In this document: positions 4,895 to 30,018 of the stretch, one piece after another
Numbering within the stretch: position 1 is the first letter of the stretch
Layout: the number at the start of each line of letters is the position of its first letter
NCBI GenBank assembly: GCA_045661185.1
Contig: JAZRFD010000017.1
Coordinates: forward strand, 1 to 47,672
Reading direction: 5' to 3'
Source of the DNA: Eubacteriales bacterium
GTDB lineage: Bacteria; Bacillota; Clostridia; Oscillospirales; CAG-272
DNA: 47,672 bases
Notes under the pieces: model-generated
Database searches by the model: none
The model's input: only the letters and a program-made list of their open reading frames with translations
Told to the model about the DNA's origin: nothing
Position numbers and translations under genes: made by a program

Positions 4895-4923
4895 ATGATA
4901 GCATATTTTTTAAAATCCTGCAA
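4895..4923 (-). promoter_or_regulatory. sigma-A type promoter candidate for trmL-mnmA
   Basis: On the minus strand: TTGCAG (4923-4918), 17-nt spacer, TATCAT (4900-4895), with TGc immediately upstream of the -10. About 34 nt upstream of the trmL ATG. Confidence 0.45.
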
Positions 4924-5044
4924 GAGAATTTATTAAAGTTTACAATATTATAATATATTTTTAGTAAAAAATGTAGTATAATGAATCCGAATATGATTTT
5001 GCAGGCCGCGCCGCAGGGCGCGGCAGAGAAAGGATTTTGAAACC

Positions 5045-7813
<2,769 letters not shown>

Positions 7814-7817
7814 TACC

Positions 7818-8558
7818 ATGGGATTTGGCATCCTTTTGGTCGGGTATCTGATCACGTTTGTGATCTGGCTGACCGTGCAGGCGATCAACGTAGGCTCTCT
7901 GGCTCTGCTTTTGGGCTATAGCCTGATGTTCTACGCGCTTTCCATGCTGAATCGCTATCACGGTGCGTTTGCCTTTGCGCGGTGGATGGCGGCGATTCAG
8001 CTGATCCCCTCGCTTTGGTTCCTTGTAACCGATGCGTCAAAGCTGTTTGGCTTTACCTTGCCGCCGATTTGGGCGGATCACATCAACTCGGCATTCACGG
8101 GCGCGGCGTTCGCGCTTGAGATCCTGTTTTTGCTTTCCATGCTGTACGCGATCCGCGCATTGGCGGATTCGATCGGCCTTAAAAGCATTTCCATGTCGGT
8201 CGTGCGCAATATGATCTTCGTGATCGCGCATGCCGTGCTGTCGGTTGCAACCGATCTTCCGTTCCTTGCGGGCATCAAGCCCTACCTCACGGCATCCCGC
8301 TTTTTGGTGGAGCTGGTCACGATCGTGTCCGTCGCGCTCCTGCTTCTTGGCTGCGCCAAGAGCATCTGTCGGGAAGGGGATGAGGAGGTCGCGCACACAC
8401 CCTCGCGCTTTGGCTGGGTCAATCGCATGACCGACGCCTACGAGCGCACGCATAAGCGCCTGAACGATCAAGCAAGGGCGGACGGTGAGGCATTCATGCG
8501 CCGCCGCCGTGAAAAGCTGGAGCAAAAGAATCAAACGAAAAAACGAAAGAAAAAATAA
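7818..8558 (+). CDS. uncharacterised polytopic membrane protein with a poly-basic C-terminal tail
   Basis: ATG 7818 with AAGGAG at 7805-7810, overlapping the secA stop region. About 6 hydrophobic segments. Tail RRRREKLEQKNQTKKRKKK. No family recognised. Confidence 0.6.
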   Translation: MGFGILLVGYLITFVIWLTVQAINVGSLALLLGYSLMFYALSMLNRYHGAFAFARWMAAIQLIPSLWFLVTDASKLFGFTLPPIWADHINSAFTGAAFALEILFLLSMLYAIRALADSIGLKSISMSVVRNMIFVIAHAVLSVATDLPFLAGIKPYLTASRFLVELVTIVSVALLLLGCAKSICREGDEEVAHTPSRFGWVNRMTDAYERTHKRLNDQARADGEAFMRRRREKLEQKNQTKKRKKK

Positions 8559-8576
8559 AAGAACGGAGGTGGTGTG

Positions 8577-10124
8577 ATGCAATTCAAGGCAAAAAAGAAG
8601 CTTGGCCTGGGGCTTTTGCTCCCCGCAATGCTTTTTCTGGCAGAGCCGATCGTGGCGTTTACGGATCTTTTGCCCAACTGCATCGGTTACCTCTTGCTCT
8701 GTGCCGCCATTTTGCAGGTGGCAGACCTTTCCGACCGCATCAACGACGCCTATGAGCGCTTCAAAAAAATGCTATGGGTCAGCGTTGGATGCTTTCTCGC
8801 GCAGCTTTACATCAATCGCGTCCTTGTCGGTGGCAGTGAAGCGATGAACGCATACGAGCGTCCCGTTTTTCTGCTCATCTGCTCCTTCGGTCTGTTTTTG
8901 GCGCATTGTTATTTTCTCATTCCCGCATACAGAGATCTGTTTTTGGGGCTGAACGCGGTGGCGGAGCGCTTTGGCGGCAGCGCGGTGCTCCTGACCAATC
9001 GCCGAGGCAGAACTCACGGTGAGCGCATGGCGCACGCGGCGGGGCGGTTTGCCTTTTGGAACGCCTTGCTGGCTCTTTTGCCCGAGGTGTCGGTGCTGAC
9101 CACCTTCGAGTTCGCCGTTGAAAAGCTCCCCTTTGATTGGTATGAGTTTATAGGACTCTTCCGCACGCTGGCGGGGATGGCCTCGGGCGTGGTGTCCTTG
9201 CTCTTTTTCATTTGCATATTGCGATATACCCACCGATTGCTCGGGGACAAGCCCTTGATGGAAGGGCTTGAGGGGCGGTATACAAAAGAGGTTCTGCCAA
9301 ACACCTACGTGCTCGGCATGCGTCGCTATCGCTTTGCGTTCCTCTTTTTAATGGTCGGCGCGGCCTTTACCGTGCGCATCCGTATGGATGAGCGCGACCT
9401 TTTGCCCACCGTCATCGGTGCTGTGCTCATTGGCGTCGGGATCCTTTGGATGGGAGAGCGATTGCAGGGAATAAAGCCCTTGATAGGAGCCCTTTGTGCG
9501 TTGGCGATCATCAGCCTTTTGCAAAGATGGCGTACCGCGGCGTATCTGGAACTGTATCTGGACGCGCAGGCATCCCTGTATTCCAGCGAAGCCTTTCGCG
9601 CCTATCTCGGCGTTCGCATTTTGACGGCTTTGGAAATTTTATGCACGCTCGGTGTGTTTTTCCTCTTGCTCCGCTTTCTTTATGCGCTGGTGCGCGAGCG
9701 GCTGCACGTGATGTACGGTGGAGCCGACGCGCGAGAGATCTCCGCAAATGCCACGGCGCGATTGCACAAACGAATGCGGATCAAACTGTACGTATGCGCG
9801 GGAGTGTTTGGGCTTTCCGCGGCAGCAAGTCTTGCCGAGGTCATTTTGGGTGTTCTGTATCCATGGCTATGGTGGATCACGCTTGCCGTGTCACTTTCGG
9901 CCGTGATCGTGTTCCTCTCATTGCTTTTTGCGCTTTTGGATGAGCTTGACGACCGTTTATCAACAGAACGGTTGTATAAACAAGAGAAAACTGCACATAC
10001 TGACTCCGTAACCCCAAAAACAAAAAAGGAGTGCAGTAATCATGCAGAACAATCAGAACAACCAGAACAAGAATCAGCAGAACAACCAGAATCAGAACAA
10101 CCAGAATCAGAACAACCAGAATAA
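8577..10124 (+). CDS. uncharacterised polytopic membrane protein, apparent two-module internal duplication, acidic EQPES-repeat tail
   Basis: GGAGG at 8565-8569 favours ATG 8577 (the ORF-track GTG at 8574 is also possible). A DLLPxxIG motif occurs twice, 244 aa apart. The C-terminus AEQSEQPEQESAEQPESEQPESEQPE is encoded by the 15-nt repeat. Confidence 0.6.
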   Translation: MQFKAKKKLGLGLLLPAMLFLAEPIVAFTDLLPNCIGYLLLCAAILQVADLSDRINDAYERFKKMLWVSVGCFLAQLYINRVLVGGSEAMNAYERPVFLLICSFGLFLAHCYFLIPAYRDLFLGLNAVAERFGGSAVLLTNRRGRTHGERMAHAAGRFAFWNALLALLPEVSVLTTFEFAVEKLPFDWYEFIGLFRTLAGMASGVVSLLFFICILRYTHRLLGDKPLMEGLEGRYTKEVLPNTYVLGMRRYRFAFLFLMVGAAFTVRIRMDERDLLPTVIGAVLIGVGILWMGERLQGIKPLIGALCALAIISLLQRWRTAAYLELYLDAQASLYSSEAFRAYLGVRILTALEILCTLGVFFLLLRFLYALVRERLHVMYGGADAREISANATARLHKRMRIKLYVCAGVFGLSAAASLAEVILGVLYPWLWWITLAVSLSAVIVFLSLLFALLDELDDRLSTERLYKQEKTAHTDSVTPKTKKECSNHAEQSEQPEQESAEQPESEQPESEQPE

Positions 10125-10200
10125 GAACCAGCAGAACCAGAACAATCAGAACAAGAATCAGCAGAACAATCAGAATCAGAACAACCAGAACAATCGCTGA
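10042..10200 (+). CDS. candidate small ORF encoding a 52-aa Asn/Gln/Lys-only peptide (leader peptide or exported peptide?)
   Basis: ATG 10042 with AAGGAG at 10026-10031 (10-nt spacer). Translation MQNNQNNQNKNQQNNQNQNNQNQNNQNKNQQNQNNQNKNQQNNQNQNNQNNR, TGA at 10198-10200. Below the 60-aa cutoff of the ORF track. Caveat: a T-poor repeat is stop-poor in every forward frame. Confidence 0.35.
   Translation: MQNNQNNQNKNQQNNQNQNNQNQNNQNKNQQNQNNQNKNQQNNQNQNNQNNR
10045..10197 (+). repeat. T-poor degenerate CAGAAC/AAT repeat with three perfect tandem 15-mers
   Basis: CAGAACAACCAGAAT x3 at 10078-10122, embedded in 153 nt built almost only of CAG, AAC, AAT and AAG triplets (10 T in total). Confidence 0.9.
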
Positions 10201-10247
10201 TCGCGCCCTCCTGCGGGAGGGTACATAGCCTGAAAGGGGGCAACGGG

Positions 10248-12524
10248 ATGTTTGAAATCGACCGTATACCGCAAAGCGTCAAGCAAGCGCTCAAGGACCG
10301 AGACGTACCGATCGAGTCGGTTCGTCTTGCCGCGCATGCCGATCGCACGCAAGCCCAAGCTGTCGGTGACGTGTATCTGTTTGCGAGCGACAAAGAGCTC
10401 ATGCTTCTGCTTGGCACGTGGACGCAATCGGAATCCCTACATACACAATTTCAGGAAACCGGGTTTGAAAGTATCCCCATTTGTACGCTTCACGATTTTC
10501 ACGTCGAGGAACTGCTTTCGGCAGGCCGCCTTGTGGCGCGCCGCCGCGATGGGGAAAGCGATTCTCCGGTCCTTTTGGCATGCTTTACGAATTTCTGCAA
10601 GGAATCCATGTTCCTCTTTTCTAAATATGCGGAAAAGCTTTCAGGGGGCGAGGAGATAGAGATCGACCCCAAGGACGATCCGTTCGCCAAATGCTGTCCC
10701 AAATGCGGACTGCGCTATCCGGATCTGAACCGCAAGGTTTGTCCCCATTGCATGGAAAAAGGGAAGCTGTTCCGCCGCTTTTCCGTGTTTTTGGCGCGGT
10801 ACAAGGGCGCGCTGATCCTCTCGGTTCTCTCCCTTGTGCTCCTGACCGCCACCAGTATTCTGGCGCCCTATCTTTCCAGCGGCTTTTTCTATGATGAGGT
10901 CATCAGCGAATACGGTGCGTTTGCGGGAAATCTTGTACTGGTCATCTTTTTGGTCGTTGCCACGGGACTGTTAAAAATGTTTTCCACCATGGTCAACAAC
11001 TACGTTACCTCTGTGATTGCAGCAAAGGTCGTTTTTGACCTGAAAAAGACCATTTTTGCGGCGATCGAGCGCCTCTCGCTCAGCTTTTTTACGTGCAGAC
11101 AAACAGGGGGACTGATGACGCAGGTTAACGAGGACGCGAATACGATCTACACCTTTTTCTGCGATTCGCTTCCGTATCTGCTCATCAATATCGTGCAGGT
11201 TATCGTTTTGTCGGTCCTGCTCTTTACCATTCAACCCTTTTTGGCGCTTTTGTCGCTTGTTACCGTTCCGATCTTCCTGATCCTGATGCGCTATCTGATC
11301 CGTCGCTTGCGCATGTATCACGCGCGGCGTTATTCCAACTCACGTCGCATGAACGGATTCCTCGCGGACGTGTTCTCGGGTATGCGCGTGGTCAAGGCGT
11401 TTTCCAAGGAGAACGAGGAGATCAAGCGCTTTACGCAGCAAAACCGCTATTTGGCGGACAGCGAAAAAAAGCTTTCGCTTTATACAAACTATATGTGGCC
11501 CGTGGCGCATCAGCTCCTTTACGTTGGCAATATCGTAGCGTGGGGCGTGGGCGGCTATATGGTCATCAGCGGGCAGTTCAACCTGACCTACGGAATCCTT
11601 TTGACCTTTGTGACCTACATCAATATGATCTTTTCACCGCTTGAATATTTCGTGGTGTTCGTGGACCGCATGGCGGATTGCTCGAACGCGCTGCAGCGTT
11701 TGTTCGAGATCATGGACGCACAGCCCGAGGTGAGCGAAAAGGAATCTCCAGAGCGACCTGAGCAGCTTCTGGGTAGCGTAGAATTCGATCACGTGTCCTT
11801 CTCCTATCAAAAGGGGAAAAAGGTGATTGACGATGTCAGCTTTGACGTGCCGGACGGAGGGATCCTCGGCATTGTCGGGCACACGGGCGCGGGCAAGAGC
11901 ACGCTGGCAAACCTCATCATGCGCATGTATGATGCCGAGGTGGGCGAGATCCGTATCGGGGGATACCCCGTCAAGGACTTGGAGCTTGCAACGCTGTATC
12001 GCCACGTGGCGATCGTTTCGCAGGAAACCTATCTGTTTGTCGGCACGATCCTTGATAACATCCGCTACGCGCGCCCCGAGGCGAGCTTTGAGGAGGTCGT
12101 TGAGGCGGCCAAATGCGCGGGTGCACACGACTTTATTATGAAGCTTCCCGACGCGTATCATACGCGCATCGGCTTTGGATATAAGGATCTGTCGGGCGGA
12201 GAGCGCCAACGCGTCTCCATTGCACGCGCGATCCTCAAAAATCCTAAAATTCTGATCCTTGACGAAGCAACTGCCGCGATGGACACGGGCACGGAGCGCC
12301 GCATTCAGGAGGCGCTTGCGGAGCTTGTCAAGGGAAAGACCACCATTATGATCGCGCACCGCTTGTCTACTCTGCGCGACGCGGACGAGCTGGTCGTTAT
12401 TGAGCACGGCCGCGTTGTGGAGCGCGGCACACACCGCGCGCTGCTTGAGATCGAGGACGGTGTTTACAAAAAGCTGTATACCCTGCAGGAAGAAGCACTC
12501 AAGAGCGCAGGGATTGCCGAGTAA
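10248..12524 (+). CDS. ABC exporter half-transporter (TMD-NBD) with ~175-aa N-terminal extension containing a zinc ribbon
   Basis: 758 aa. AAGGGGG SD 7 nt upstream. CCPKCGLRYPDLNRKVCPHC at aa 149-168, just before TM1. Six-TM exporter domain. Walker A GHTGAGKSTL, signature LSGGERQR, Walker B ILILDEATAAMD. Confidence 0.9.
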   Translation: MFEIDRIPQSVKQALKDRDVPIESVRLAAHADRTQAQAVGDVYLFASDKELMLLLGTWTQSESLHTQFQETGFESIPICTLHDFHVEELLSAGRLVARRRDGESDSPVLLACFTNFCKESMFLFSKYAEKLSGGEEIEIDPKDDPFAKCCPKCGLRYPDLNRKVCPHCMEKGKLFRRFSVFLARYKGALILSVLSLVLLTATSILAPYLSSGFFYDEVISEYGAFAGNLVLVIFLVVATGLLKMFSTMVNNYVTSVIAAKVVFDLKKTIFAAIERLSLSFFTCRQTGGLMTQVNEDANTIYTFFCDSLPYLLINIVQVIVLSVLLFTIQPFLALLSLVTVPIFLILMRYLIRRLRMYHARRYSNSRRMNGFLADVFSGMRVVKAFSKENEEIKRFTQQNRYLADSEKKLSLYTNYMWPVAHQLLYVGNIVAWGVGGYMVISGQFNLTYGILLTFVTYINMIFSPLEYFVVFVDRMADCSNALQRLFEIMDAQPEVSEKESPERPEQLLGSVEFDHVSFSYQKGKKVIDDVSFDVPDGGILGIVGHTGAGKSTLANLIMRMYDAEVGEIRIGGYPVKDLELATLYRHVAIVSQETYLFVGTILDNIRYARPEASFEEVVEAAKCAGAHDFIMKLPDAYHTRIGFGYKDLSGGERQRVSIARAILKNPKILILDEATAAMDTGTERRIQEALAELVKGKTTIMIAHRLSTLRDADELVVIEHGRVVERGTHRALLEIEDGVYKKLYTLQEEALKSAGIAE

Positions 12525-12536
12525 GGAGGGGAGAGC

Positions 12537-13082
12537 ATGAGAGAGCACGGAAAAAACGCCCATGGGGGCGAGGAAAAAAAGGTGCGCACGCTGGCGGAGC
12601 TTTCGGTAACGGTATGGCTGACGCCCGAAAACGCGACCTTCTTTATGAAAAATCAGTTTCTCTATATCCGCTACGGTGAAGCCGAGGTGCGCGCGCAGCT
12701 CTACCGACAGTTCCCGTTTGAATCGGAATGGGAATTTATCTCGGTGATGAACGAGGAGCAGGAGGAGATCGGGATCATCCGCAACGTGTCGCAGTTTGAT
12801 GCGGAGACCGAGAATCTTTTGCGGGATGAATTGCGCCGCCGCTATTATGCGCCCGTGATCGAGCGCGTTATCAGCGTCAAGGAGCGCTACGGCTTTTCCT
12901 ACTGGAAGGTACATACTCCCGAGGGGGACGTCTCCTTTACGCTGCACGATACCTATCGCTCGATCATCCATGCGGGGCAGAACCGCCTGATCCTGCTTGA
13001 CGTTAACGGCAACCGCTTTGAGATCCCCGACGCCTTGGCGCTGGATCGCAAGAGCTACAAAAAGATCGAGCTGTATCTATAA
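12537..13082 (+). CDS. small soluble protein, DUF1854-like ABC-transporter-associated protein
   Basis: 181 aa, no hydrophobic segments, AAGGAGGGG SD. Sandwiched between two ABC half-transporter genes, as I recall for DUF1854 (PF08909) proteins. C-terminal NRFEIPDALALDRKSYKKIELYL. The family assignment is from memory and needs an HMM check. Confidence 0.55.
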   Translation: MREHGKNAHGGEEKKVRTLAELSVTVWLTPENATFFMKNQFLYIRYGEAEVRAQLYRQFPFESEWEFISVMNEEQEEIGIIRNVSQFDAETENLLRDELRRRYYAPVIERVISVKERYGFSYWKVHTPEGDVSFTLHDTYRSIIHAGQNRLILLDVNGNRFEIPDALALDRKSYKKIELYL

Positions 13083-13093
13083 GGAGGCGGCGT

Positions 13094-15310
13094 GTGAACG
13101 GATTTCAAAAAAAGCTTTTTGAAAAAGCGAAAACGCTGGATCCCGCATTGAGCGAGGAGGATTTCGTCGATCTGCTTTTGTCAGACCTTGACCCGCTCCA
13201 ACCGCAGGCGCGCGTGCAGGATTTCACGCTCCTGACGCGAGACGGGCTTTGCGTGTACCGTGACGGGGAGCGGATTTTGTTCGAGCCGATTGACGGGATC
13301 GAGCGATTGAACGTGATCAACGGTGTCGGGTGTGTGTTCGTGGAGCTGGTGCGCCGCGACGGCGAGCACGTGCGAATGGCACGCGCGGACAACCGACGAC
13401 AGTCAAGCGTTGCGCAATCGGTCAAGCGAATGAATCATTATCTGCGGCATGGCAGTACGGATTTTTCAAAGATAAAATTTAGCGGCGGGCAATGCCCACG
13501 GTGTGGCAAGCCCTATCCGCGCGGCTCACACACCTGCCCGCGGTGTACCTCCAAGAAAAAGGCACTGCGGCGTCTTTTGGGGCTTGCCATGCGCGAAAAA
13601 TGGCGCATTGCGGCATCTGTGGTTTTCTTCTTTGTGGGGACGCTTGTCAGCCTTGTGACCCCGATCATCAATCGCGTCATGGTGGACGATTACATCCAAA
13701 ACACGGGGGACCGTGCTCTGACGCGGGTTTTCTTTATCGGCTTTGTCAGCGTGGTGCTTTCCATGCTGGTGGCGAATATTCTCAAGCGCCTGATCAATAT
13801 GGGGCGCGGCTATTTTCTGGCGATCGCGGGCAACAACCTGATCGTGCGTCTGCGCGACACGGTCTTTGCCAAGATCCAGCAGCTTTCCATTTCCAGCATT
13901 TCCGAACGAACCTCGGGAGAGCTTATGAAGCGCGTCAACAGTGACACGCGTGTGATCAAGCAATTCCTGATCGACCACCTGCCAAGCCTTGTGGAGCAGA
14001 TGCTCTTGCTTTTGGCGGTCGGTGCTTACGTGTTTGTGGTGGATTGGCGCGTAGCACTCCTGATCCTAATCCCCGCACCCTTCGTAGCTCTTGCCTTCCG
14101 CATGTTCTGGCGCTTTATGCGCGGGCTCTTTCAACGCCGTTGGCAGATCAACTCCGAGACAAACGCCGTTTTGCACGACATCTTCTCGGGCATCCGTGTG
14201 GTCAAATCCTACGGCATGGAAAAGCGAGAGGAGAAGCGCTTCGTCGGCATGGCGGCGGCAGAGCGTGCGGCACAGCTGCGGATTGAGCGCTTTTGGGCGA
14301 TCCTGATGCCGCTTTTACGCTTCCTGATGGGCATCGGTGAATATATCCTGCTCTTTTACGTGGGCACGCAAATGCTCAAGGGGCAGATGACTGCGGGTGA
14401 AATGGCGCAGTTTTCCGCTTACGCGGGGATGATCTTCGGCCCGATGTCGGCGCTGATGAACTTCCCGCGGCAGTTTATGCACATGATGACCTCTCTCACG
14501 CGCGTTTATGAGATTATGGACGAGGAGATCGACATTGCAGACGGAGCTTCCAAGGAAGCCAAGCCCTTTGAGGGCTATATTGACCTTAACAACGTTTCCT
14601 TCGGCTACGATGACGCGCGCGAGGTGCTTCGCGGAATCGACCTGCATATTCGCCCGGGCGAGTTTATTGGATTGGTCGGTAAATCGGGCGTTGGAAAATC
14701 CACGCTGATCAACCTGATTATGCGTATGTACGACGTGGACGAGGGCTCGATCTGTATTGACGGTGAGGATATCCGCAACATTCCGCAGGAGGAGCTGCGA
14801 TCGCAGATGGGCGTGGTGTTGCAGGAAAATTTCCTTTTCACGGGCTCGGTCTGGCAGAATTTGACCTATGCAAAGCCAAACGCCACGCGCGAGGAGGTCA
14901 TTCAAGCCGCCAAAACTGCGGGCGCGCATGAGTTTATCATCCGCCTGCCCGACGGCTACAACACCTACGTTGGCGAAAAGGGGCATACGCTTTCGGGCGG
15001 TGAGCGCCAGCGCATCTCGATCGCGCGCGCGCTGCTGCACGACCCTAAAATCTTGATTTTGGACGAGGCGACGGCATCCTTGGATACCGAAACCGAAAAG
15101 CTGATTCAGGATGCGCTGGCGGCGTTGTCGGCAGGTCGCACGACCATTGCGATCGCGCATCGACTGTCCACGCTCCGCAACGCAACGCGACTTGTGGTCT
15201 TGGATAAGGGCGAAATTGCTGAGGTCGGCACGCACGACGAGCTGATGGAGCGCGAGGGCATCTATTACGGCCTTGTCATGGCTCAGCGTGAAATGTCGAG
15301 GATTGGGTAA
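13094..15310 (+). CDS. ABC exporter half-transporter (TMD-NBD) with ~165-aa N-terminal extension containing a zinc ribbon
   Basis: 738 aa. GTG start 6 nt after AAGGAGG. CPRCGKPYPRGSHTCPRC at aa 134-151. Walker A GKSGVGKSTL, LSGGERQR, ILILDEATASLD. Confidence 0.9.
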   Translation: MNGFQKKLFEKAKTLDPALSEEDFVDLLLSDLDPLQPQARVQDFTLLTRDGLCVYRDGERILFEPIDGIERLNVINGVGCVFVELVRRDGEHVRMARADNRRQSSVAQSVKRMNHYLRHGSTDFSKIKFSGGQCPRCGKPYPRGSHTCPRCTSKKKALRRLLGLAMREKWRIAASVVFFFVGTLVSLVTPIINRVMVDDYIQNTGDRALTRVFFIGFVSVVLSMLVANILKRLINMGRGYFLAIAGNNLIVRLRDTVFAKIQQLSISSISERTSGELMKRVNSDTRVIKQFLIDHLPSLVEQMLLLLAVGAYVFVVDWRVALLILIPAPFVALAFRMFWRFMRGLFQRRWQINSETNAVLHDIFSGIRVVKSYGMEKREEKRFVGMAAAERAAQLRIERFWAILMPLLRFLMGIGEYILLFYVGTQMLKGQMTAGEMAQFSAYAGMIFGPMSALMNFPRQFMHMMTSLTRVYEIMDEEIDIADGASKEAKPFEGYIDLNNVSFGYDDAREVLRGIDLHIRPGEFIGLVGKSGVGKSTLINLIMRMYDVDEGSICIDGEDIRNIPQEELRSQMGVVLQENFLFTGSVWQNLTYAKPNATREEVIQAAKTAGAHEFIIRLPDGYNTYVGEKGHTLSGGERQRISIARALLHDPKILILDEATASLDTETEKLIQDALAALSAGRTTIAIAHRLSTLRNATRLVVLDKGEIAEVGTHDELMEREGIYYGLVMAQREMSRIG

Positions 15311-15748: not shown

Positions 15749-18721
15749 TTACTCACTTCTGAGCGCCTCAACGGGGTTCCGCTTCGCGGCGAAGCGAGAG
15801 GGGAAGAGGCCTGCGATGAAGGTCAGGATCATGCTGATAGCCACGAGCACGATCGCGCCGACAACGGGCAGGGTTGCCTTGAGGTTGGGGATTCCCGTGA
15901 GCGAGAAGAGAATGATATTGATAATGATATTGAAGAACAGGGTTACAAGGATACCGATCATACCGGCTACAAATCCGACGATCAGGGTTTCGGCGTTGAA
16001 CACGCGGCTGACGTCGCGCTTGGAAGCACCGATTGAGCGCAAAATACCGATTTCCTTGGTTCTTTCCAGCACCGAGATATAAGTGATAATGCCGATCATG
16101 ATCGAGGAAACGATCAGGGAAATGGCAACGAACGCGATGAGCACGTAGGTGATTGCGTTGAGAACGGTGGTGATTGAGGACATGAGAAGCCCTACGTAGT
16201 CGGTGTATTCGATCTTCTTATCCTCGTCGACGGAATCGTTGTATTCCTTGATCAACGCGGCGATCTCGTCCTTGTTTTCAAAGCTGGACGCATAGAGATA
16301 GATGCTGACGGGATTCGCTTCATCTACGTCGCCAAGCAGATAGAGGTTGGTATCGTAGCTGGAGTCGGAGAATACGCGCGGCACACCGTCTTGCTCGTAA
16401 AGCACCGCCATTTGCGTGTCGTCAAGCGTTGCGGCAACCTGCAGGGCGGTAGCACCTGTTTGAGCGAACACCTGCTCGGAGAGCTCCTGCTGAACCGCAA
16501 GCGTTGCCGCCGCGGTGATGAAATACGCTTTGAGCTCGGGCGTCGAGAGCACCAGCTCGGGTGTGATACCCGCGGGGATCTCCATGCCCATCGAGGGGGC
16601 GAGTGCGAGCAGTTGCTCGACCATAGGGGTCAATTCCGCGTCGCTCATCTGTGAGAGCTGTGCGCTTGCCGCATTGACTGCCTCGGGGGTGATGAGCACG
16701 GTCATCAGGAACATCTGTGCCTGCTCCTCGGGGAGTGTCGCGAGATATTCCATCACGACCTCGCGCTTGCGCTCGGGCGAAACCTCACTCGTAGCAAAGT
16801 ATTTACCGGTGAAAATATCGATGGCAGGATTGGCTTTTTGCAGATTGAGCAGAGTGCTGTCCTTGGTGCGCTTAAGAACGAGGTCTGCCAGCGCCGAGGT
16901 GTAGCCGATGCTACCCGCGGTCAGGGTCGCGGCGGTCGTGCCTTCCTTGGGGCGCACGATACCGACAACGCGCAGCTTGATCGAATCCGCATCATCGTAA
17001 AGCGTGTTGCGTCCGTCTGCCGTATCGGTCAGATCAGAGTAGCCATTGCCGTCGGGCGCATACGCGTCGGAGGCCAGAACCAAACGAAATTCCATGTCGC
17101 GGATCTCGTCAAAGCTCCAGGTTTCGCGGTCGGTGGATACCTGCTCGCCCTTTACGGCGGCATTCCAAAGCTGCAGCATCTCATCCTTGGTGCGAAGACC
17201 CAGCGCGTAGAGCGAAAGGTCGCTTAATTCATTGTTTTCGCTGACGACCAGCACGACCTCGTTAGCGGCGGTCGGCCAGCGGCTACCGCTGTCTACAAGC
17301 TCATATTGCTCCTTGAGCACGTCGTTGACAAGCGAATCGCTGTTTTTGTCCAAGGGCTCAAGCATCTCGGTCCAAACGTCCATGCCGCCCATCATGCTCA
17401 TGCTGCCGCTCATGTCTCCCATGGAGGAGCCGTTGAGCATCGCGTCGCTCATCCATCCAAAGAGGTCGGATTTGACGACGCTGCCGTTCTTGTCCTTAAC
17501 AAGCACGGTCCAGTTGAAGTTGTATGCGTACTGCACGGCGGTCAGATATTCGTCGAATTTTTTAGAGTCCTCCAAATGCTTTTTAAAGGAGGCTAGATCG
17601 TTCTTGGTGCTTCCCGCAGAGCCCATCGCGTTGACAAGGTCGGCAAGGATCGTGCTTTCGTAGACCTTGTCCTTGTCGTGCTTGGTCGCGTTTTCCTGCT
17701 TTTCCATCAGCGTGGTCATCACGGCGGCAAAGTCCATGGTCTCGGCATGAAGCTCGAGCGGGTAGCCCGCCAGCGTATCGCGCTGAACGGCATTGATATA
17801 GTTGTTGACACCCGTGGAGACCGACAGGATCAGCGCAATGCCGATGATACCGATTGATCCCGCAAAGGAGGTCATAAAGGTGCGTCCTTTTTTGGTTAAG
17901 AGGTTATTGAGCGAGAGGGAAAGCGCCGTGAAAAAGGACATGGACTTCTTCTTTTTCTTTTTCACCGCCTTTTTCTCGGCTTGTACGTTCGGCGCCACCT
18001 CGTCCCGATGTGCAGGAGTCGGCTCTGCGCTTTCATCCTCACCGTGATAAGGATTGGAATCGTCCACAATGTGACCGTCGAGCACGCTGATGATACGGTT
18101 GGAATAATCATGTGCGAGGTCGGGGTTGTGCGTGACCATGATGATCAGCTTTTTGTGCGAGATCTCGCGCAGAATATCCATGATCTGCACGCTGGTCTGC
18201 GTGTCAAGCGCGCCCGTCGGCTCGTCGGCAAGCAGAATGTCGGGGTCATTGACCAAAGCGCGCGCGATTGCGACACGCTGCATCTGTCCGCCCGAGAGCT
18301 GATTGGGCTTTTTGTTCAGCTGATCTCCAAGTCCCACGTCGGTCAATGCCTTTGCGGCTCTCTCGCGACGCTCCTTTTTGGAAATGCCCGAAAGCGTCAG
18401 CGCCAACTCTACGTTGGCAAGCACCGTCTGGTGGGGGATCAGATTGTAGCTTTGGAACACAAAGCCGATGGAGTGGTTGCGGTAGGTATCCCAATCTGCG
18501 TCACGGTATTCCTTTGTGGACGTGCCGTCTATGATCAGGTCACCGCTGGTGTATTGGTCAAGGCCTCCGATGATGTTCAGGAGCGTGGTCTTTCCGCATC
18601 CCGAGGGCCCCAGAATCGAAACGAACTCGTGGCGGCGGAACTGCAGCGTAATGCCGTCCAGCGCGCGGACCGACGTGTCGCCCGTTTTGTAATCCTTTAC
18701 AATTTGTCTCAGTTCAAGCAA
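15749..18721 (-). CDS. fused ABC ATPase + FtsX/MacB-type permease with a very large extracytoplasmic domain
   Basis: N-terminal ATPase ([39 protein letters not shown]), Lys-rich linker, TM1, ~560-aa hydrophilic domain, C-terminal FtsX-type 3-TM bundle. TTG 18721 ([11 protein letters not shown]) sits 7 nt after GGAGG (18733-18729) and is preferred over the ORF-track TTG at 18736. Confidence 0.85.
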
Positions 18722-18761
18722 TTTGGTGCCTCCCAAAAGAAAATGATTGCAATTTTAGCAT

Positions 18762-18770
18762 AGTTTTTTT
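18762..18770 (-). promoter_or_regulatory. extended -10 promoter element candidate for the MacB-type gene
   Basis: The minus strand reads TGCTAAAAT (TGn + TAAAAT) about 40 nt upstream of the start. No good -35. Confidence 0.35.
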
Positions 18771-18814
18771 AAGTTAATGTTAATACACGGTGATGAAATG
18801 GTGATTTTTGAAAA

Positions 18815-20575
18815 TTATTCCGCAAATTGGCTATTGTAGAGGTGATGATAGAAGCCCCCCAGCGCCAGCAGCTCGCGATGCGTGCCTTGCTCCACGATCT
18901 TTCCGTCGCGCATGACAAGGATCACGTCTGCGGACTCAATGGTGGAGAGGCGGTGTGCCACGATAAAGGAGGTGCGTCCTTGCATCATGGTGGCAAACGC
19001 GTTCTGGATCTTCAGCTCCATACGGGTGTCGATCGAGGAGGTTGCCTCGTCAAGGATCAGCATAGGCGGGAGCGCGAGCATCACGCGGGTGATGCAAAGC
19101 AGCTGCTTTTGCCCTTGAGACAGCGTGCCGCCGTTTTCGCCAAGCACCGTGTCGTAGCCTTGTGGCAGGCGCTTGATAAAGGAGTGCGCGTGCGACGCCT
19201 TTGCGGCGGCGTTCATTTCCTCGTCGGAGGCATCCGGCCGCCCCATACAAATGTTTTCGCGCACGGTTGCATTTCGCAGCCACGTGTCCTGAAGCACCAT
19301 GCCCCAGTTGGCGCGAAGCGACGAGCGCGTTATGTCGCGGATATCGGTGCCGCTGACCGAAACGCTACCCTCGTTTACGTCGTAAAAGCGCATGAGCAGG
19401 TTGATCAGCGTGGTCTTTCCGCAGCCCGTGGGTCCAACAATTGCCACACGCTGGCCGGGGTGGACGGTGAGGTTGAGATCACGGATCAGGTCGCGCTCGG
19501 GGGTGTAGGAGAACGCCACGTTTTCAAGTGTCACTCTGCCGTCAGCCTCCAAAAGCACCCGTGCGTCGGGCGCGTCTGCGGGGATCTCGGGCTCGTCAAG
19601 CAGCGCAAACACCCTGCCCGCACACGCAAGCGCGTTCTGGAGCTCGGCAAACACCCCCGAGATCTCGTTGAAGGGCTTAGTGTACTGGTTGGCGTAATTG
19701 AGAAATACCGAAAGAGTACCCACCGTAAACCCGGTCGGTGATGTGATGCAAAGGAACGCGCCGACAAGTGCCACGCCCGCGTACACGAGATTGTTCACGA
19801 ATCGCGTGGAGGGGTTGGTAATGGAGGAGAAGAAGGTTGCGCGTAAGGCGCATTTGCCAAGGCGCTCGTTGATCTTGTTGAATTTTCCGATCGACTCGTC
19901 CTCGTGCGAGAAGGCCACGATCAGCTTGTGGTTGCCAATATATTCGTCGATCATCGAGGTCTGCTCTGCGCGGGTCTTGGATTGCAGCGTAAACAATGCA
20001 TGCGTGCGCTTTGCGATGAATGCGGCTACAAAGAGCGAGAGCGGTGTGACCAGAAGCACGACCAGGGCGATCTGCCACTTGATGGTGAGCATGATCACAA
20101 GCGTGCCGAGAATGGTGAGCAGTCCCGTGAAGAACTGCGCAAAGCCGAGCAGCAGACCGTCGGTGAACTGATCGACGTCCGAGATCATACGGCTGACGGT
20201 GTCGCCCGTCGGGTGGCTGTCAAGATAGGAAAGAGGCAGGCGCTGGAGCTTTTCAAAGGACTCGCGGCGCAGTCTGCGTACGATCCCGTAGGTGATGCGG
20301 TTATTGATGACGTTCATGACCCATTGGCAAAGCGCGCCGATGAGCGTGCAGATGCCGATCTGCGCGGCGATCTTCAACACGCCCTTCCAATTTACGTCAC
20401 CCTTGCCGACGATTTCGTCGATGGCAAGACCCGTCAGCAGCGGCACGATCAGGGTCAGTGCCACGCCTACGGCGGCGAGCAGAAGCGAGAAAACAAGCGC
20501 GATGCGATAGTGCTTAAGGCCCTTGAGCACGCGGAAGAAGGTCTTTTTGTCAAACGAATGCTTTTTCTTCGTCAT
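18815..20575 (-). CDS. ABC exporter half-transporter (TMD-NBD), heterodimer partner B
   Basis: 586 aa. Six-TM domain. [30 protein letters not shown]. 4-nt overlap with the upstream partner. Confidence 0.9.
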   Translation of the reverse strand: MTKKKHSFDKKTFFRVLKGLKHYRIALVFSLLLAAVGVALTLIVPLLTGLAIDEIVGKGDVNWKGVLKIAAQIGICTLIGALCQWVMNVINNRITYGIVRRLRRESFEKLQRLPLSYLDSHPTGDTVSRMISDVDQFTDGLLLGFAQFFTGLLTILGTLVIMLTIKWQIALVVLLVTPLSLFVAAFIAKRTHALFTLQSKTRAEQTSMIDEYIGNHKLIVAFSHEDESIGKFNKINERLGKCALRATFFSSITNPSTRFVNNLVYAGVALVGAFLCITSPTGFTVGTLSVFLNYANQYTKPFNEISGVFAELQNALACAGRVFALLDEPEIPADAPDARVLLEADGRVTLENVAFSYTPERDLIRDLNLTVHPGQRVAIVGPTGCGKTTLINLLMRFYDVNEGSVSVSGTDIRDITRSSLRANWGMVLQDTWLRNATVRENICMGRPDASDEEMNAAAKASHAHSFIKRLPQGYDTVLGENGGTLSQGQKQLLCITRVMLALPPMLILDEATSSIDTRMELKIQNAFATMMQGRTSFIVAHRLSTIESADVILVMRDGKIVEQGTHRELLALGGFYHHLYNSQFAE

Positions 20576-22299
20576 GCCTCATCGCCCCCTCTCTTGTACT
20601 GCGATTCGTGGATCTCGCGGTAGACCTCGCAAGAGGTGAGAAGCGTGTCGTGTGTGCCGATCCCGACCAGCTCACCGTCCTCCATGACAAGGATCACGTC
20701 GGCGTGACGGATCGAGGAGGTGCGTTGGGAGATGAGGAAGGTCGTGGGCTTGTGGGGGAGGGTCTTGAGAGACGCGCGCAGGGCGGCATCGGTCGCATAG
20801 TCAAGCGCCGAGGAGCTGTCGTCAAGGATCAAGATTTCCGCCCGACGAACCAGCGCGCGCGCAATGGTCAGGCGTTGGCGCTGACCGCCCGAAAAGTTTT
20901 TGCCGCCTTGAGAGACGGGTGCATCAAGCCCCTGTGGCTTTTCCATTACAAAATCCTTTGCTTGCGCACATGCCAATGCGTCCGTCAGCTCCTCGTCGGT
21001 GGCATTTGCGTTGCCCCAGAGAAGATTGGAGCGCACGGTGCCCTCGACAAGCGCCGCCTTTTGCGGTACAATGGCGATGCGCTCGCGCAGATCCTCTACG
21101 TCATAGCTGCGTACGTCGCGGCCGTTTACCAGAACGCGCCCTTTGTCAGCATCATAAAAGCGTGGGATGAGATTGACAAGAGAGGTTTTTCCCGAGCCCG
21201 TTGAGCCGATCACACCGACCGTGGCACCCTTGGGAATCGAAAAAGAGATGCTTGAAAGCGTTTCCGTCGCGTTGCCGCCATAGGTCAGGGAAACGTTTTC
21301 AAAGGTTACGGCATCGTCGCTGCTAATAGCATCGGTGAATGCTTCCACAGGCATTCCGATGGGTGTGTCAAAGACCTGTTGGATGCGGTCGGCGGATGCC
21401 AACGCCTTGTTGACCGTAAAAATGGTGGTTGCGAATTTGACCAGCTCCACAAGGATCTGTGCCATGTAGTTCGTCATTGCAACGACGTCGCCCTGCGTCA
21501 TATCCCCGATCTCGACCAGATGCGCGCCCGAGAGGAGCAACGCGATCACGCCCGCGTTGACCACCACAAGCGTCAAGGGGTTCATCAGCGCGGCAATTCT
21601 GCCGACAAAATTCTGAATGCGGTTGTGAGATTCGTTGATCTCGTTAAAGCGATCGATCTCCTCGTTTTCCTTACGGAACGCACGGATCACGCGTGCGCCG
21701 TACAGATTTTCGCGCGTCGTCTGCGTAACACCGTCAAGGTTTTTTTGCACCTTTTTGTAAAGCGGAATGCTGCCGATCATGATCGAAAAGACGATTGCCG
21801 CCAGCACGGGAATGACGATTGCAAAGATCCACGCACTTTTAGCATTGACCGTAAACGCCATGATCATTGCACCAAAGACGATAATGGGGGAGCGCAAAAG
21901 CAGGCGGAGCGTGAAGTTGATGCCTGATTGGACCTGGTTGACGTCGCCCGTCATGCGTGTGACCAGCGTGGACGTGCCGATGCGGTCAGTGTCCGAATAA
22001 GAAAACTGTTGGATATGCCCAAACAGATCGCGACGCAGGTCGGTGGCAAAGCCGACTGCCGCGCGCGCGGCGAAATATTGCGCGATCAGGGCACAGGAGA
22101 GCCCCACCACGGCAAAGCCGACAAGCACGCCGCACATGCCGCCCACGTATCCCATGTCCCCGTCGGCAATGCCGCGGTCGATGATCAGCTTGACCACGAT
22201 CGGCACGAGCAGATCGAACACGGCCTCAAGGAGCTTGAACAAGGGGCTCATGATACTCTCGCGCCGATAGGGCTTGAGATATTTCAAAAGCTTTTTCAT
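20572..22299 (-). CDS. ABC exporter half-transporter (TMD-NBD), heterodimer partner A
   Basis: 575 aa. MKKLLKYLKPYRRE N-terminus typical of MdlA/B-type exporters. GSTGSGKTSL, FSGGQRQRLTIARAL, ILILDDSSSALD. Confidence 0.9.
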   Translation of the reverse strand: MKKLLKYLKPYRRESIMSPLFKLLEAVFDLLVPIVVKLIIDRGIADGDMGYVGGMCGVLVGFAVVGLSCALIAQYFAARAAVGFATDLRRDLFGHIQQFSYSDTDRIGTSTLVTRMTGDVNQVQSGINFTLRLLLRSPIIVFGAMIMAFTVNAKSAWIFAIVIPVLAAIVFSIMIGSIPLYKKVQKNLDGVTQTTRENLYGARVIRAFRKENEEIDRFNEINESHNRIQNFVGRIAALMNPLTLVVVNAGVIALLLSGAHLVEIGDMTQGDVVAMTNYMAQILVELVKFATTIFTVNKALASADRIQQVFDTPIGMPVEAFTDAISSDDAVTFENVSLTYGGNATETLSSISFSIPKGATVGVIGSTGSGKTSLVNLIPRFYDADKGRVLVNGRDVRSYDVEDLRERIAIVPQKAALVEGTVRSNLLWGNANATDEELTDALACAQAKDFVMEKPQGLDAPVSQGGKNFSGGQRQRLTIARALVRRAEILILDDSSSALDYATDAALRASLKTLPHKPTTFLISQRTSSIRHADVILVMEDGELVGIGTHDTLLTSCEVYREIHESQYKRGGDEA

Positions 22300-24698: not shown

Positions 24699-24733
24699 GC
24701 CTCCTACATAACCTGTTGTGTGGGAGGCTTTTT
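24699..24733 (+). terminator. intrinsic terminator after trmD whose 3' arm carries the SD of the next gene
   Basis: GCCTCCTACA (24699-24708), 10-nt loop, TGTGGGAGGC (24719-24728; one G-U pair), TTTTT (24729-24733), then ATG 24734. Confidence 0.6.
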
Positions 24734-25957
24734 ATGTCGAAAACGAAGGACGTATGCGCGTTTTTTCGCAAAAATCGGGTCATCGAACGCGCTCTTTGCG
24801 CGCTTTTGCTCCTGTTTCCCATCCTGCACGCGCTGCCGCATCCCACCTATCTTGTCGGCGGCGCCGCGGTGTTCCTTTTTGTGGGGTATGTGTTGACATA
24901 CGGTGCTATAGAGCTTTTGCCGCGGGAGTGGGATGAGTGGCTTGCTTGGAGCCTTTGCGGTTTGCTTCTGCTATACGGCTTTTTGGGATATGGCACGGTG
25001 CTGGCAGGCTGTGGCGCGGCACTCCTTTTGGCGACCTATTTCCCCGTGCGTGCGCTGCTTGCCGAGCGGCGCGTCCTTCAAAATCTGCGTTTTTTTGCCG
25101 GCCTTGGTGCTTTTGTGCCCTCGCTTTACGGGATCGGTCAGTATTTCTTCGGGGCGCTTGAGGTGAAATGGGTGGATCTGCGGCTGTTTTCGGACATCGG
25201 CGGTCGCGTGACCTCTTTTTTTGATAACCCCAACGTTTTGGCGATCTATCTCCTGTTTTGCTTTCCGTTGGCGCTTGGCGGCGCATTCGATCGGTCGGAA
25301 CGATTGCTTTTTCGATCCGTTTGCGCCGCGAGCGCGGTTCTGATCCTTTTTTGTACCGTTCTGACCTGGACGCGTGGCGCGTGGCTCGGAATGCTCTTGC
25401 AGGGGACACTTTTTTTGGTGCTTCACAGCAAGCGTACACGTCGGGCGTTGTTGCTTTTTCCGCTGTTTTTTGTTCTTTCCGCCGCGCTTTTGCCGCCGCA
25501 GGTGCTCCGACGCTTTTTGAGCATCGGAAACCTTACGGAGTCCTCAAACCGATACCGCATCCACACCTGGCGCGGTGTGCTCCGCATGATCGCAGCCCAT
25601 CCTCTTGGCATTGGTGTGGGGGAGACCGCCTTTCGACGGGTCTATCCCCCGTATGCCCTTATGGGAACCGAGACCGTGATGCATGCGCACAGCGTTTTTT
25701 TGCAGGTGACGTGCGAAACGGGTGTGATCGGTGGCGCGGTGCTTCTTTTGTGGTGTATTTCTACGGTGTGGCGAGGGCGCAAAAGCGAGCGGATCCTTCC
25801 CATGGCGGGACTGTTGGTAATGGGCCTGTTCGACCACCTCTGGTATGCCCCCGGTATGGCACTTTTGTTTGCGTGTGCCATGGCAATTGCGGCCGCGGAA
25901 CCACAAAACGGCAGGGAACGACAAGAAAATGTATGTATTTTGCACGAAAAACTTTGA
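24734..25957 (+). CDS. O-antigen ligase (Wzy_C) family polytopic membrane protein
   Basis: ~407 aa from ATG 24734 (GGGAGG 6 nt upstream). About 10-12 TM segments. VLTWTRGAWLGMLLQ matches the Wzy_C/O-antigen-ligase loop motif. Confidence 0.75.
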   Translation: MSKTKDVCAFFRKNRVIERALCALLLLFPILHALPHPTYLVGGAAVFLFVGYVLTYGAIELLPREWDEWLAWSLCGLLLLYGFLGYGTVLAGCGAALLLATYFPVRALLAERRVLQNLRFFAGLGAFVPSLYGIGQYFFGALEVKWVDLRLFSDIGGRVTSFFDNPNVLAIYLLFCFPLALGGAFDRSERLLFRSVCAASAVLILFCTVLTWTRGAWLGMLLQGTLFLVLHSKRTRRALLLFPLFFVLSAALLPPQVLRRFLSIGNLTESSNRYRIHTWRGVLRMIAAHPLGIGVGETAFRRVYPPYALMGTETVMHAHSVFLQVTCETGVIGGAVLLLWCISTVWRGRKSERILPMAGLLVMGLFDHLWYAPGMALLFACAMAIAAAEPQNGRERQENVCILHEKL

Positions 25958-29382: not shown

Positions 29383-30018
29383 ATGGATTTGAGCAGCGTA
29401 AAGCGCTCGGCACTCACGGGCGCGCTTATTTACACCGTGTTCGGTGTTCCTGCGGGACTGCTTCTTTTGCTGGTTCCCACAAGCTTTTTGCTTTGGTTGG
29501 TATTTGTGATCATGGGGATTGTCACCGTGGTCAGCAACATTCCCGGTGTGATTATGGGGTTGATGTCTATTGGCCGCCCGTCGGGGATCCTCATGCTCGT
29601 TCTTTCGGCACTTTCGGTGATGCTTGGCGTGATGATGATCTTCTGGCACGAGGAGATTTTGATGATCGTCGTGGGAATTTACATGCTTCTGTTGCCGATC
29701 CTTTCCGTGATCCTTGCCAAGGACCACGGGGCACAGCTCAAGGCGGAGCTGCCAAAGCTCATCATCGGCCTTGTGCTTGTGATCCTGGGACCTGCGGGAA
29801 CGATCGACGTTTTGTTTGACGTGGCCGGCTGGATCGTGATCGCCCTGAGCGTGATCTATCTTGTTACGGTGCTTTTGGGTGTTCGCAAGCTGCAAAACAC
29901 GCCCGGCACACGTGTGTTTGTTGACCACGACGGTGACGGCACGATTGATGCCGTTTACGTAGACACCACGGGCGACGGTCGGGTGGACGCGTCCACTAAA
30001 TATAAGGATCAAAAATGA
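29383..30018 (+). CDS. membrane protein (5-6 TM) with a C-terminal tandem DxDxDG-type tail
   Basis: 211 aa. GGAGGA SD. Hydrophobic through aa ~165, then VFVDHDGDGTIDAVYVDTTGDGRVDAST. Confidence 0.6.
   Translation: MDLSSVKRSALTGALIYTVFGVPAGLLLLLVPTSFLLWLVFVIMGIVTVVSNIPGVIMGLMSIGRPSGILMLVLSALSVMLGVMMIFWHEEILMIVVGIYMLLLPILSVILAKDHGAQLKAELPKLIIGLVLVILGPAGTIDVLFDVAGWIVIALSVIYLVTVLLGVRKLQNTPGTRVFVDHDGDGTIDAVYVDTTGDGRVDASTKYKDQK

Follow-up and report, generated by a model that had tools for sequence, protein, structure and literature searches.

Two separable modules, a secA-linked membrane protein pair and a DUF1854-containing ABC exporter, probably juxtaposed in one lineage of uncultured gut Clostridia

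The stretch of DNA analysed here, hereafter the window, is a contig of 47,672 nucleotides from a member of the Eubacteriales in which the secA gene is followed, on the same strand, by a block of six open reading frames (ORFs) at positions 7818-15310. The account that is favoured, and held to be likely, is that this block brings together two separable modules in one particular lineage, probably on one transcript. The first module (M1) comprises secA, two membrane protein genes (ORF1 and ORF2) and, in a majority of the loci where it could be sought, a micro-ORF composed largely of asparagine and glutamine codons (the QN ORF), and would act with SecA; the second (M2) is a triad encoding two ATP-binding cassette (ABC) half-transporters, ABC1 and ABC2, on either side of a DUF1854 protein, and would act as an exporter. 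The QN ORF is concluded to be a real gene of the secA module, being neither a partner nor a leader of the exporter. The features in question are as follows.

5045-7813, + strand: secA, 922 aa, first gene of the array
7818-8558, + strand: ORF1, 246 aa
8574/8577-10124, + strand: ORF2, 516/515 aa
10038-10195, no strand assigned: tandem repeat of CAGAAC type, with units of ~6/15/24/39 nt, underlying the ORF2 tail and the QN ORF
10042-10200, + strand: QN micro-ORF, 52 codons, MQNNQNNQNKNQ...NNR
10205-10226, + strand: stem-loop CCCTCC-TGCG-GGAGGG (itself at 10206-10221), then the invariant TACAT; no T tract
10248-12524, + strand: ABC1, 758 aa
12537-13082, + strand: DUF1854 protein, 181 aa, PF08909 E=1.3e-34
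13094-15310, + strand: ABC2, 738 aa
15317-15361, no strand assigned: GC-rich 20-bp hairpin between the convergent ABC2 (+) and an FtsX-type ABC gene (-)

All six ORFs were found where a first-pass annotation of the sequence had placed them, with gaps of 4-47 nt or overlaps between them, as were the poly-basic tail of ORF1, the poly-acidic repeat tail of ORF2 and the hairpin at 15317, confirmed here as a 20-bp stem. From secA to ABC2, the successive spacings are 4 nt, 15-18 nt, an overlap of 83 nt (ORF2/QN), 47 nt, 12 nt, and 11 nt, and the ATG at 8577 is probably the true start of ORF2. The closing hairpin has no T run on the + strand and is likely to mark the end of the transcription unit.

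This gene arrangement lies far beyond chance and recurs in dozens of species-level genomes. Loci for comparison were drawn from the genomic contexts of ORF2 and DUF1854 homologues, from a scan of GTDB species genomes using a DUF1854 seed (80 loci, all in gut metagenome-assembled genomes (MAGs) of uncultured Clostridia, Eubacteriales, Oscillospiraceae or Acutalibacteraceae), and from a metagenome scan seeded with ORF1 alone and hence blind to secA (60 loci). The pooled non-redundant set contained 105 loci with ORF1 and/or ORF2.

The six genes had at first been taken for one ensemble coupled to secA, a view overturned by the neighbourhood comparison, in which the parts were seen to assort independently. 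M2 was found in about 29 species without secA, ORF1, ORF2 or QN within 7-10 kb, its neighbours there being unrelated housekeeping genes (NTP transferase, HAD, TauE, LexA, thioesterase, YgjP, GDSL lipases, MatE, SpoIVA, and MarR), and M1 was found without the ABC triad in 12 loci. The genes that follow ORF2/QN are varied and include, besides the ABC triad, a PcrA/UvrD helicase, DnaX, a radical-SAM enzyme, GH106, glycerate kinase, MatE, a CHAP-domain protein, an esterase, and an ECF transporter. At least nine kinds of breakpoint were thus observed after ORF2/QN, and none at the secA-ORF1 or the ORF1-ORF2 boundary. The M1-M2 junction occurs only where SecA is at least ~72% identical to that of the window, bar a single locus (L033) at 70%, and the triad is absent from the M1 loci whose SecA identity lies at 57-72%. 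The independent occurrence of the two parts and their ordering by SecA identity therefore argue for two modules, the junction being a derived feature of one clade. The proposed coupling to secA accordingly stands for ORF1-ORF2 with or without QN and falls for the triad.

The secA gene of the window is of the housekeeping type. Its product scored 1178 bits against the NCBIfam equivalog NF009538 (cutoff 814) and carries a zinc-binding motif at its C-terminus, and all SecA2 models stayed below their cutoffs on it (TIGR03714, 755 vs 930; TIGR04397, 888 vs 1085; NF012136, 670 vs 1100). ORF1 and ORF2 are adjacent in 95 of 95 loci, and secA lies directly upstream of ORF1 in at least 92 of the 98 loci whose upstream sequence extends to 150 nt or more; of the six loci in which no upstream secA was called, three show short secA fragments and the others are too short to judge. 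The median gaps are 12 nt between secA and ORF1 and 24 nt between ORF1 and ORF2. Even the metagenome scan that was blind to secA recovered it upstream, and the linkage of the three genes spans SecA identities of 57-100% to the window.

ORF1 consists of one six-helix membrane module. Among the relatives aligned, its N-terminus MGFG is invariant, a cytoplasmic motif C-x4-C-x-G-[DE]-E...SRF-x-[WF]-[VI]-N is conserved, and the protein ends in a long helix with a poly-basic tail, a feature retained by all of them. The tail resembles the ribosome-binding tails of YidC/Oxa1-type insertases, a likeness to be treated as a lead rather than a test. The AlphaFold2 (AF2) model of ORF1 (predicted local distance difference test score, pLDDT, 81; predicted template modelling score, pTM, 0.69) has six transmembrane helices and a C-terminal helix at residues 199-245. 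That of ORF2 (pLDDT 72.7, pTM 0.66), a protein with ~12-13 helices, displays two six-helix sets of matching length pattern followed by a disordered tail from residue 473, and the helix patterns agree between the two models. By profile-profile comparison, the N-half of ORF2 was related to its C-half (probability 89-93%, E 2e-6 to 4e-8) and ORF1 to the N-half of ORF2 (probability 52-86%, E 1.5e-4 to 6e-7), the reversed-sequence controls giving E 0.07-0.27; no direct relationship between ORF1 and the C-half of ORF2 was detectable by the same means. The idea that ORF2 arose as a tandem duplication of an ORF1-type module is supported by these predictions, in agreement with the three paralogous membrane modules that had been noticed at first reading.

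ORF2 belongs to a sizeable family, for which HMMER, run against the whole of a set of 1.84 billion representative proteins, returned 1074 clusters at 50% identity (E<=1e-3), nearly all of them 440-510 aa in length. Searches of Pfam and NCBIfam with ORF1, ORF2, four QN peptides and every member of two of the alignments returned nothing above threshold and only sub-threshold noise (Peptidase_S49_N, DUF6249, and DUF2070). Sequence-profile searches of the PDB with ORF1, ORF2 and DUF1854 gave no match, nor did Foldseek comparison of the AF2 models against the PDB (best E 1.0 for ORF1 and 0.13 for ORF2, template modelling score at most ~0.4). On the strength of the linkage described above, M1 is probably a SecA-associated membrane complex.

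The QN ORF was found in 45 of the 67 loci with enough sequence 3' of ORF2. In most of these loci the ORF stands free within the spacer, without overlapping ORF2; in the window, the repeat at 10038-10195 is read in one frame as the acidic ORF2 tail and in another as the QN ORF. A Shine-Dalgarno sequence (AAGGAG at 10026-10031 in the window) is present 4-18 nt upstream in all 37 unique QN copies, 35 of which start with MQN or MQT, and the encoded peptides are 42-74 aa long. Their composition is dominated by Asn (52%) and Gln (29%), with 5% Lys, 4% Arg and a mere 3.9% of hydrophobic residues, giving a net charge of +2 to +5 across the unique copies. The choice of synonymous codons follows that of secA in the same genomes (AAC 0.68 vs 0.67; CAG 0.67 vs 0.71), as is expected for selection on the peptide and not on the RNA sequence. 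Judging by such coding signals, the QN ORF is almost certainly translated.

The relation between the two frames of the repeat is illuminated by the ORF2 homologues. In two of them (P0200 and P0225; 551 and 547 aa), the ORF2 C-terminus continues as an in-frame fusion with QN sequence, an internal MQN being retained, and two others (P0205 and P0209) carry acidic E/Q/S/P tails like that of the window ORF2, such that one repeat appears to be used in two frames by different lineages. In the window and its closest relatives, the usual ORF2 stop has been lost and the E/Q/S/P frame reads into the QN repeat until a stop is met by chance, hence the differing tail lengths. Since the 'KKECSNHAEQ' conserved in the acidic tails corresponds to the Shine-Dalgarno sequence and ATG of the QN ORF, the acidic ORF2 tail is best seen as overprinting. 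An ORF2-ABC1 fusion protein was also considered, the ORF2 frame being open for 41 codons past the TAA at 10122-10124 into the in-frame ATG of ABC1 (10248), and was rejected in view of the stops of the homologues, which are scattered through the repeat; the single stop codon between ORF2 and ABC1 is treated as chance. In an uncultured Ruminococcus MAG (L053, 6543-9932), one frame of 1129 codons follows secA-ORF1 across the place of ORF2 and ABC1, which may represent either the fusion of a truncated ORF2 with ABC1 or an artefact of assembly or frameshift. The small ORF after ORF2 at L101 (6579-6878) encodes an S/Q/N/D repeat (SQNSQNSQD...) in place of Q/N, and the composition of the low-complexity ORF therefore varies between lineages.

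At the junction of the two modules, the QN stop in the window clade is followed within 5-25 nt by a stem-loop, the 3' arm of which always runs into TACAT, and this TACAT lies 20-30 nt after the QN stop codon (33 loci). The stem varies in sequence, as in GCCCTCC/GGAGGG (window), GCTCTCCC/GGAGAG (L013), ATCTCCCC/GGGGAGAT (L019) and ACCCGC/GCGGGT (L048), and in a TACAT-anchored alignment of 32 sequences from different loci, each of the five core pairs shows a compensatory change in at least one sequence. The combination of hairpin and TACAT is largely specific to this place, with ~37 of 62 sites in 3.7 Mb (both strands) falling at the junction and a single site in the window. Energetically, the local fold is unremarkable (z = -1.3), and an Rfam search of 9800-10400 returned no family, the only hit being a sub-threshold CrcZ (14.8 bits vs 95). 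The spacer between QN and ABC1 measures 41-101 nt in nearly all junction loci and holds no promoter match. With so short and promoter-less a spacer and a hairpin devoid of a T tract, M2 would most likely be expressed by read-through from the secA operon. Long QN-ABC1 spacers in three loci (L013 ~7590-7640, L022 ~7640-7690, and L061 ~7400-7500) contain strong sigma-70-like promoter sites (TTGACA-18-TATGAT, TTGACT-17-TACAAT), from which the ABC triad probably has its own promoter there. In the subclade of L019-L024, L031 and L042, a second mini-hairpin (GCGC-TAA-GCGC) closely precedes the main one and carries the QN stop codon in its loop.

Turning to the triad, both ABC proteins carry ABC_membrane and ABC_tran domains (ABC1: PF00664 E=3e-35, PF00005 E=5e-31) and the motifs GHTGAGKST/GKSGVGKST, LSGGERQR, ILILDEAT and IAHRLST, with Walker A, Walker B with its catalytic Glu, signature and H-loop all represented. 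M2 is accordingly predicted to be a heterodimeric ABCB-type (type IV) exporter in which both ATP sites are canonical. The closest solved relatives of the two halves are Sav1866, TM287/288, TmrAB and BmrCD, with ~570 residues aligned at E 1e-94 to 1e-107. Each half is preceded by an N-terminal cytosolic domain of ~170 residues with a CxxC...CxxC zinc ribbon. The N-domains of ABC1 and ABC2 are homologous (hhalign probability 96%), and hhalign found no relationship between them and DUF1854; at one locus (L049), the zinc ribbon of ABC2 is missing. The middle protein matches PF08909 over residues 54-178 (119.2 bits vs a gathering threshold of 26.8, E=1.3e-34), and the order ABC1-DUF1854-ABC2 is kept in all 80 loci of the genome scan.

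The first-pass annotation had recognised no characterised role beyond the ABC cores, and this remains so for ORF1 and ORF2; the ABC and DUF1854 proteins do have named kin, annotated in NCBIfam as cyanophycin metabolism-associated. The best NCBIfam match of both ABC proteins is NF052233 (CphA_assoc_ABC; 483.8 bits for ABC1 and 552.4 bits for ABC2, short of the cutoff of 880), the match to ABC2 extending into the N-domain (model positions 73-745), and NF052234 scores 79.3 bits on the DUF1854 protein, below its cutoff of 150. Price et al. (bioRxiv 10.1101/072470) reported that, in two beta-proteobacteria, DUF1854 shows co-fitness with an ABC transporter and cphA/cphA', and from this mutant co-fitness proposed the export of an amino-acid polymer. 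Nothing beyond that study was found in the literature on DUF1854/PF08909, and nothing was added by the literature on cyanophycin exporters, Asn-codon leader peptides or secA operons in Oscillospiraceae. No cphA/cphA'-like protein (ATP-grasp or Mur-ligase type) was present among the large ORFs of the 47.7-kb window or among the sampled neighbours of stand-alone triads. The triad should therefore be described, on present sequence grounds, as a heterodimeric, cphA-less DUF1854/ABC system, and not be called cyanophycin-associated, as the equivalog cutoffs were failed. By analogy, M2 probably exports a polar polymer or peptide.

Several observations weigh against this account of the block and should be given fair consideration. 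The QN ORF is missing in 22 of the 67 loci, which means that it is not essential to M1. Within the clade that has both modules, the median identity to the window is 80% for SecA, 72% for ABC1, 70% for DUF1854 (41 loci) and 67% for ABC2, and drops to 43% for ORF1 and 39% for ORF2; core partners of an essential ATPase do not usually diverge so fast. A divergent trmL, often with mnmA, is also syntenic upstream of secA in many loci, so that part of the conservation of secA-ORF1-ORF2 could be plain synteny. The lack of a cphA-like gene in the window and the unmet NCBIfam cutoffs render the polymer-export analogy for M2 a loose one. Lastly, this account does not by itself explain why TACAT is invariant, a sequence that could serve for processing or for the binding of a protein.

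The fast divergence of ORF1/ORF2 and the synteny of trmL/mnmA, which have no obvious functional tie, together with the absence of homology between ORF1/ORF2 and Sec, YidC or accessory-Sec components, favour the view that secA-ORF1-ORF2 is merely an inherited adjacency with shared transcription, the job of ORF1/ORF2 being unrelated to protein export. Such a view is unlikely, albeit deserving of some weight, as the many kinds of breakpoint all fall after ORF2/QN, the median gaps are only 12 and 24 nt, and the linkage persists down to 57% SecA identity. At the other extreme, the whole block could be a single machine in which the QN peptide, a nitrogen-rich ribosomal analogue of a cyanophycin-like polymer, would be the cargo of ABC1/ABC2-DUF1854, with ORF1/ORF2 as a platform for assembly, anchoring or immunity and SecA supplying the other components. 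The single strand, the gaps of 4-47 nt, the lack of a terminator between QN and ABC1, the full array kept in 36 loci, the tie of the nearest named ABC/DUF1854 relatives to an Asp/Arg polymer and the polar, N-rich character of the QN peptide itself would all be in keeping with this. QN and the triad also occur together more often than not (both in 36 loci, triad only in 5, QN only in 4, and neither in 8), but phylogeny confounds this pattern, as does the use of DUF1854 as the seed for 80 loci. The single machine is nevertheless improbable in the light of the ~29 species in which M2 exists without QN, ORF1 and ORF2. Conversely, QN occurs without the triad after it in L101, L135, L140 and L152, each with at least 3.5 kb of downstream sequence (SecA identity down to 58% in L135 and L140), and without any ABC gene after it on the shorter contigs L090, L107, L128 and L132; genuine intrinsic terminators of the hairpin-plus-T type lie 3' of the QN ORF in L101, L107, L128, L132 and L152. 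M1 and M2 are, moreover, joined without QN in L005, L043-L045 and L151, the triads of L013, L022 and L061 have their own promoter-like site before ABC1, and the QN peptide has no leader, just as the ABC proteins have no C39 peptidase domain.

Two further explanations concern the QN ORF alone. It might be untranslated, the CAGAAC-type repeat serving as a DNA or RNA feature (a slippage-prone spacer or an A-rich, protein-binding 3' untranslated region) and the open frame being a by-product. The repeat unit is indeed stop-free in every frame, the +1 frame is open in 38 of 40 copies, the repeat copy number varies freely among relatives, and ORF2 of the window clade reads the same DNA in another frame. 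Against these stand the correctly spaced Shine-Dalgarno sequence in every unique copy, the ATG-CAG-AAC start in 35 of the 37, the closure of the +2 frame in 36 of 40 copies, the variation of synonymous third positions as in secA, the fusions of the QN frame to ORF2, and a subclade that keeps non-repeat C-terminal residues (e.g. ...YEQKKNER) despite changes in repeat number, all of which make an untranslated repeat quite improbable. Alternatively, QN could be a regulatory leader, whereby the speed of the ribosome over ~45 Asn/Gln codons would report charged tRNA-Asn/Gln, and with it the nitrogen status, and the ribosome, by covering or releasing the hairpin 5-8 nt past the QN stop, would set read-through into, or translation of, the ABC genes. 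The tightly fixed distance from the QN stop to TACAT could be explained in this way, as could the complementarity of the 5' arm CCCTCC to Shine-Dalgarno-like sequences, including the G-rich one of ABC1, and the ABC relatives are tied to a nitrogen-storage polymer. Yet QN is also present in M1-only loci, where an ordinary terminator and an unrelated gene follow, and its in-frame fusions to ORF2 favour a protein role. Known attenuation leaders (his, phe, and trp) are far shorter than 42-74 regulatory codons, and the junction offers a single hairpin with no T tract, an unremarkable local fold and no alternative, mutually exclusive terminator/antiterminator pairing; an attenuation leader was thus rejected, and a regulatory leader of any kind is regarded as very improbable. 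Against each of the four explanations stands either the independent assortment of the modules or the set of coding signals of QN.

On the favoured account of two juxtaposed modules, ORF1 and ORF2 would assemble into a membrane complex containing one module three times over, which, to go by the gene linkage only, may work with SecA on the cytoplasmic side of the membrane. The role of cytoplasmic partner or tail of ORF2 would fall to the QN peptide, as the in-frame fusions suggest. M2 would export a polar amino-acid polymer or peptide by analogy with the system of Price et al., with DUF1854 and the ABC N-domains acting as the cytosolic adaptor or gate of the exporter. In M1-only genomes, the secA operon would stop at an ordinary terminator after the QN ORF; in the window clade, this terminator may have been replaced or disabled upon the arrival of the triad, leaving the T-less hairpin and TACAT through which the triad is read. 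A more ambitious and decidedly tentative proposal is that secA-ORF1-ORF2-QN represents an unrecognised SecA-associated membrane complex, widespread among uncultured gut Clostridia, in which a novel six-helix module is used three times and the Asn/Gln peptide, whether as partner or fused tail, forms a polar-zipper or condensate-like element at the translocase, one clade having wired a polymer or peptide ABC exporter into the same transcript via a modified terminator.

The surroundings of the block contribute a few further observations. A GC-rich stem-loop, GCCGCGCC-GCAGG-GCGCGGC, is found in the secA 5' leader (5003-5028), between an AT-rich promoter-like region (4900-4990, TATAAT at ~4977) and the secA Shine-Dalgarno sequence, and may be a regulatory or stabilising element. 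Convergent to the block, on the - strand at 15749-22299, lie the genes of an FtsX-type ABC protein (995 aa, ABC_tran and FtsX) and two ABCB half-transporters (586 and 575 aa), a set that is syntenic in L001, L003, L007, L009 and others and not in L006 or L151. Further along, Wzy_C (O-antigen ligase-like) and Polysacc_synt (flippase-like) genes at 24716-25957 and 30015-31421, respectively, point to a surface-polysaccharide region, with no link to the block seen.

SecA ranks among the most thoroughly studied of bacterial machines, yet in a large clade of gut Clostridia its gene is followed by those of two membrane proteins as yet uncharacterised. Should ORF1 and ORF2 work with SecA, they would be accessory parts, new to protein export, of bacteria that are dominant in the gut microbiomes of ruminants and humans. 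Conserved bacterial genes for prion-like, low-complexity Asn/Gln peptides are rare; the QN micro-ORF is one, and offers a defined object with which to test the role of such sequences in bacteria. For annotation purposes, a role in secretion should not be assigned to the DUF1854/ABC triad on the basis of association; the triad is rather a candidate for tracing the cargo of those 'cyanophycin-associated' exporters that lack a nearby cyanophycin synthetase.

Among known systems, the nearest to M2 is the beta-proteobacterial one described by NF052233/NF052234 and Price et al., with which it has in common the N-terminal extension, the type-IV transmembrane domain (TMD), the nucleotide-binding domain (NBD) and the adjoining DUF1854 gene. 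M2 differs in having two paralogous half-transporters flanking DUF1854 instead of one, in its sub-cutoff scores, in the absence of cphA/cphA' from the 47.7-kb window, and in its host, a member of an uncultured gut lineage of Clostridia and not a proteobacterium. The core of TMD and NBD is likewise common to the heterodimers TM287/288, TmrAB and BmrCD and the homodimer Sav1866, to which M2 adds the zinc-ribbon N-domains and a dedicated DUF1854 partner. Several of these heterodimers have one degenerate ATP site, whereas both sites of M2 are canonical.

M1 was compared with three further groups of systems. Sec monitoring substrates (SecM, MifM, VemP, and RAPP/RQH) are encoded upstream of the regulated sec or yidC gene and possess a localisation signal at the N-terminus and an arrest motif at the C-terminus (Nat Commun 2024, PMC10987492). 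QN is like them in being a small ORF in a sec operon by an RNA hairpin, and was rejected as a Sec arrest peptide, for it lies downstream of secA, is low in hydrophobic residues, and has neither a hydrophobic segment nor an arrest motif. The accessory Sec system (SecA2/SecY2/Asp) similarly has extra membrane proteins encoded with secA; it was dismissed on the grounds that the SecA here passes the housekeeping equivalog and fails the SecA2 cutoffs, and that ORF1/ORF2 have no SecY or Asp matches. Loci for bacteriocins or ribosomally synthesised and post-translationally modified peptides (RiPPs) also present a small peptide gene, a stem-loop and then ABC exporter genes. A bacteriocin precursor was rejected for QN in that there is no double-glycine leader, no Peptidase_C39 match and no modification enzyme, with TIGR01193 and TIGR03796 far below their cutoffs; unlike the peptide genes of such loci, the QN gene travels with secA-ORF1-ORF2 and not with the ABC genes. 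No counterpart of secA-ORF1-ORF2-QN was found among known systems.

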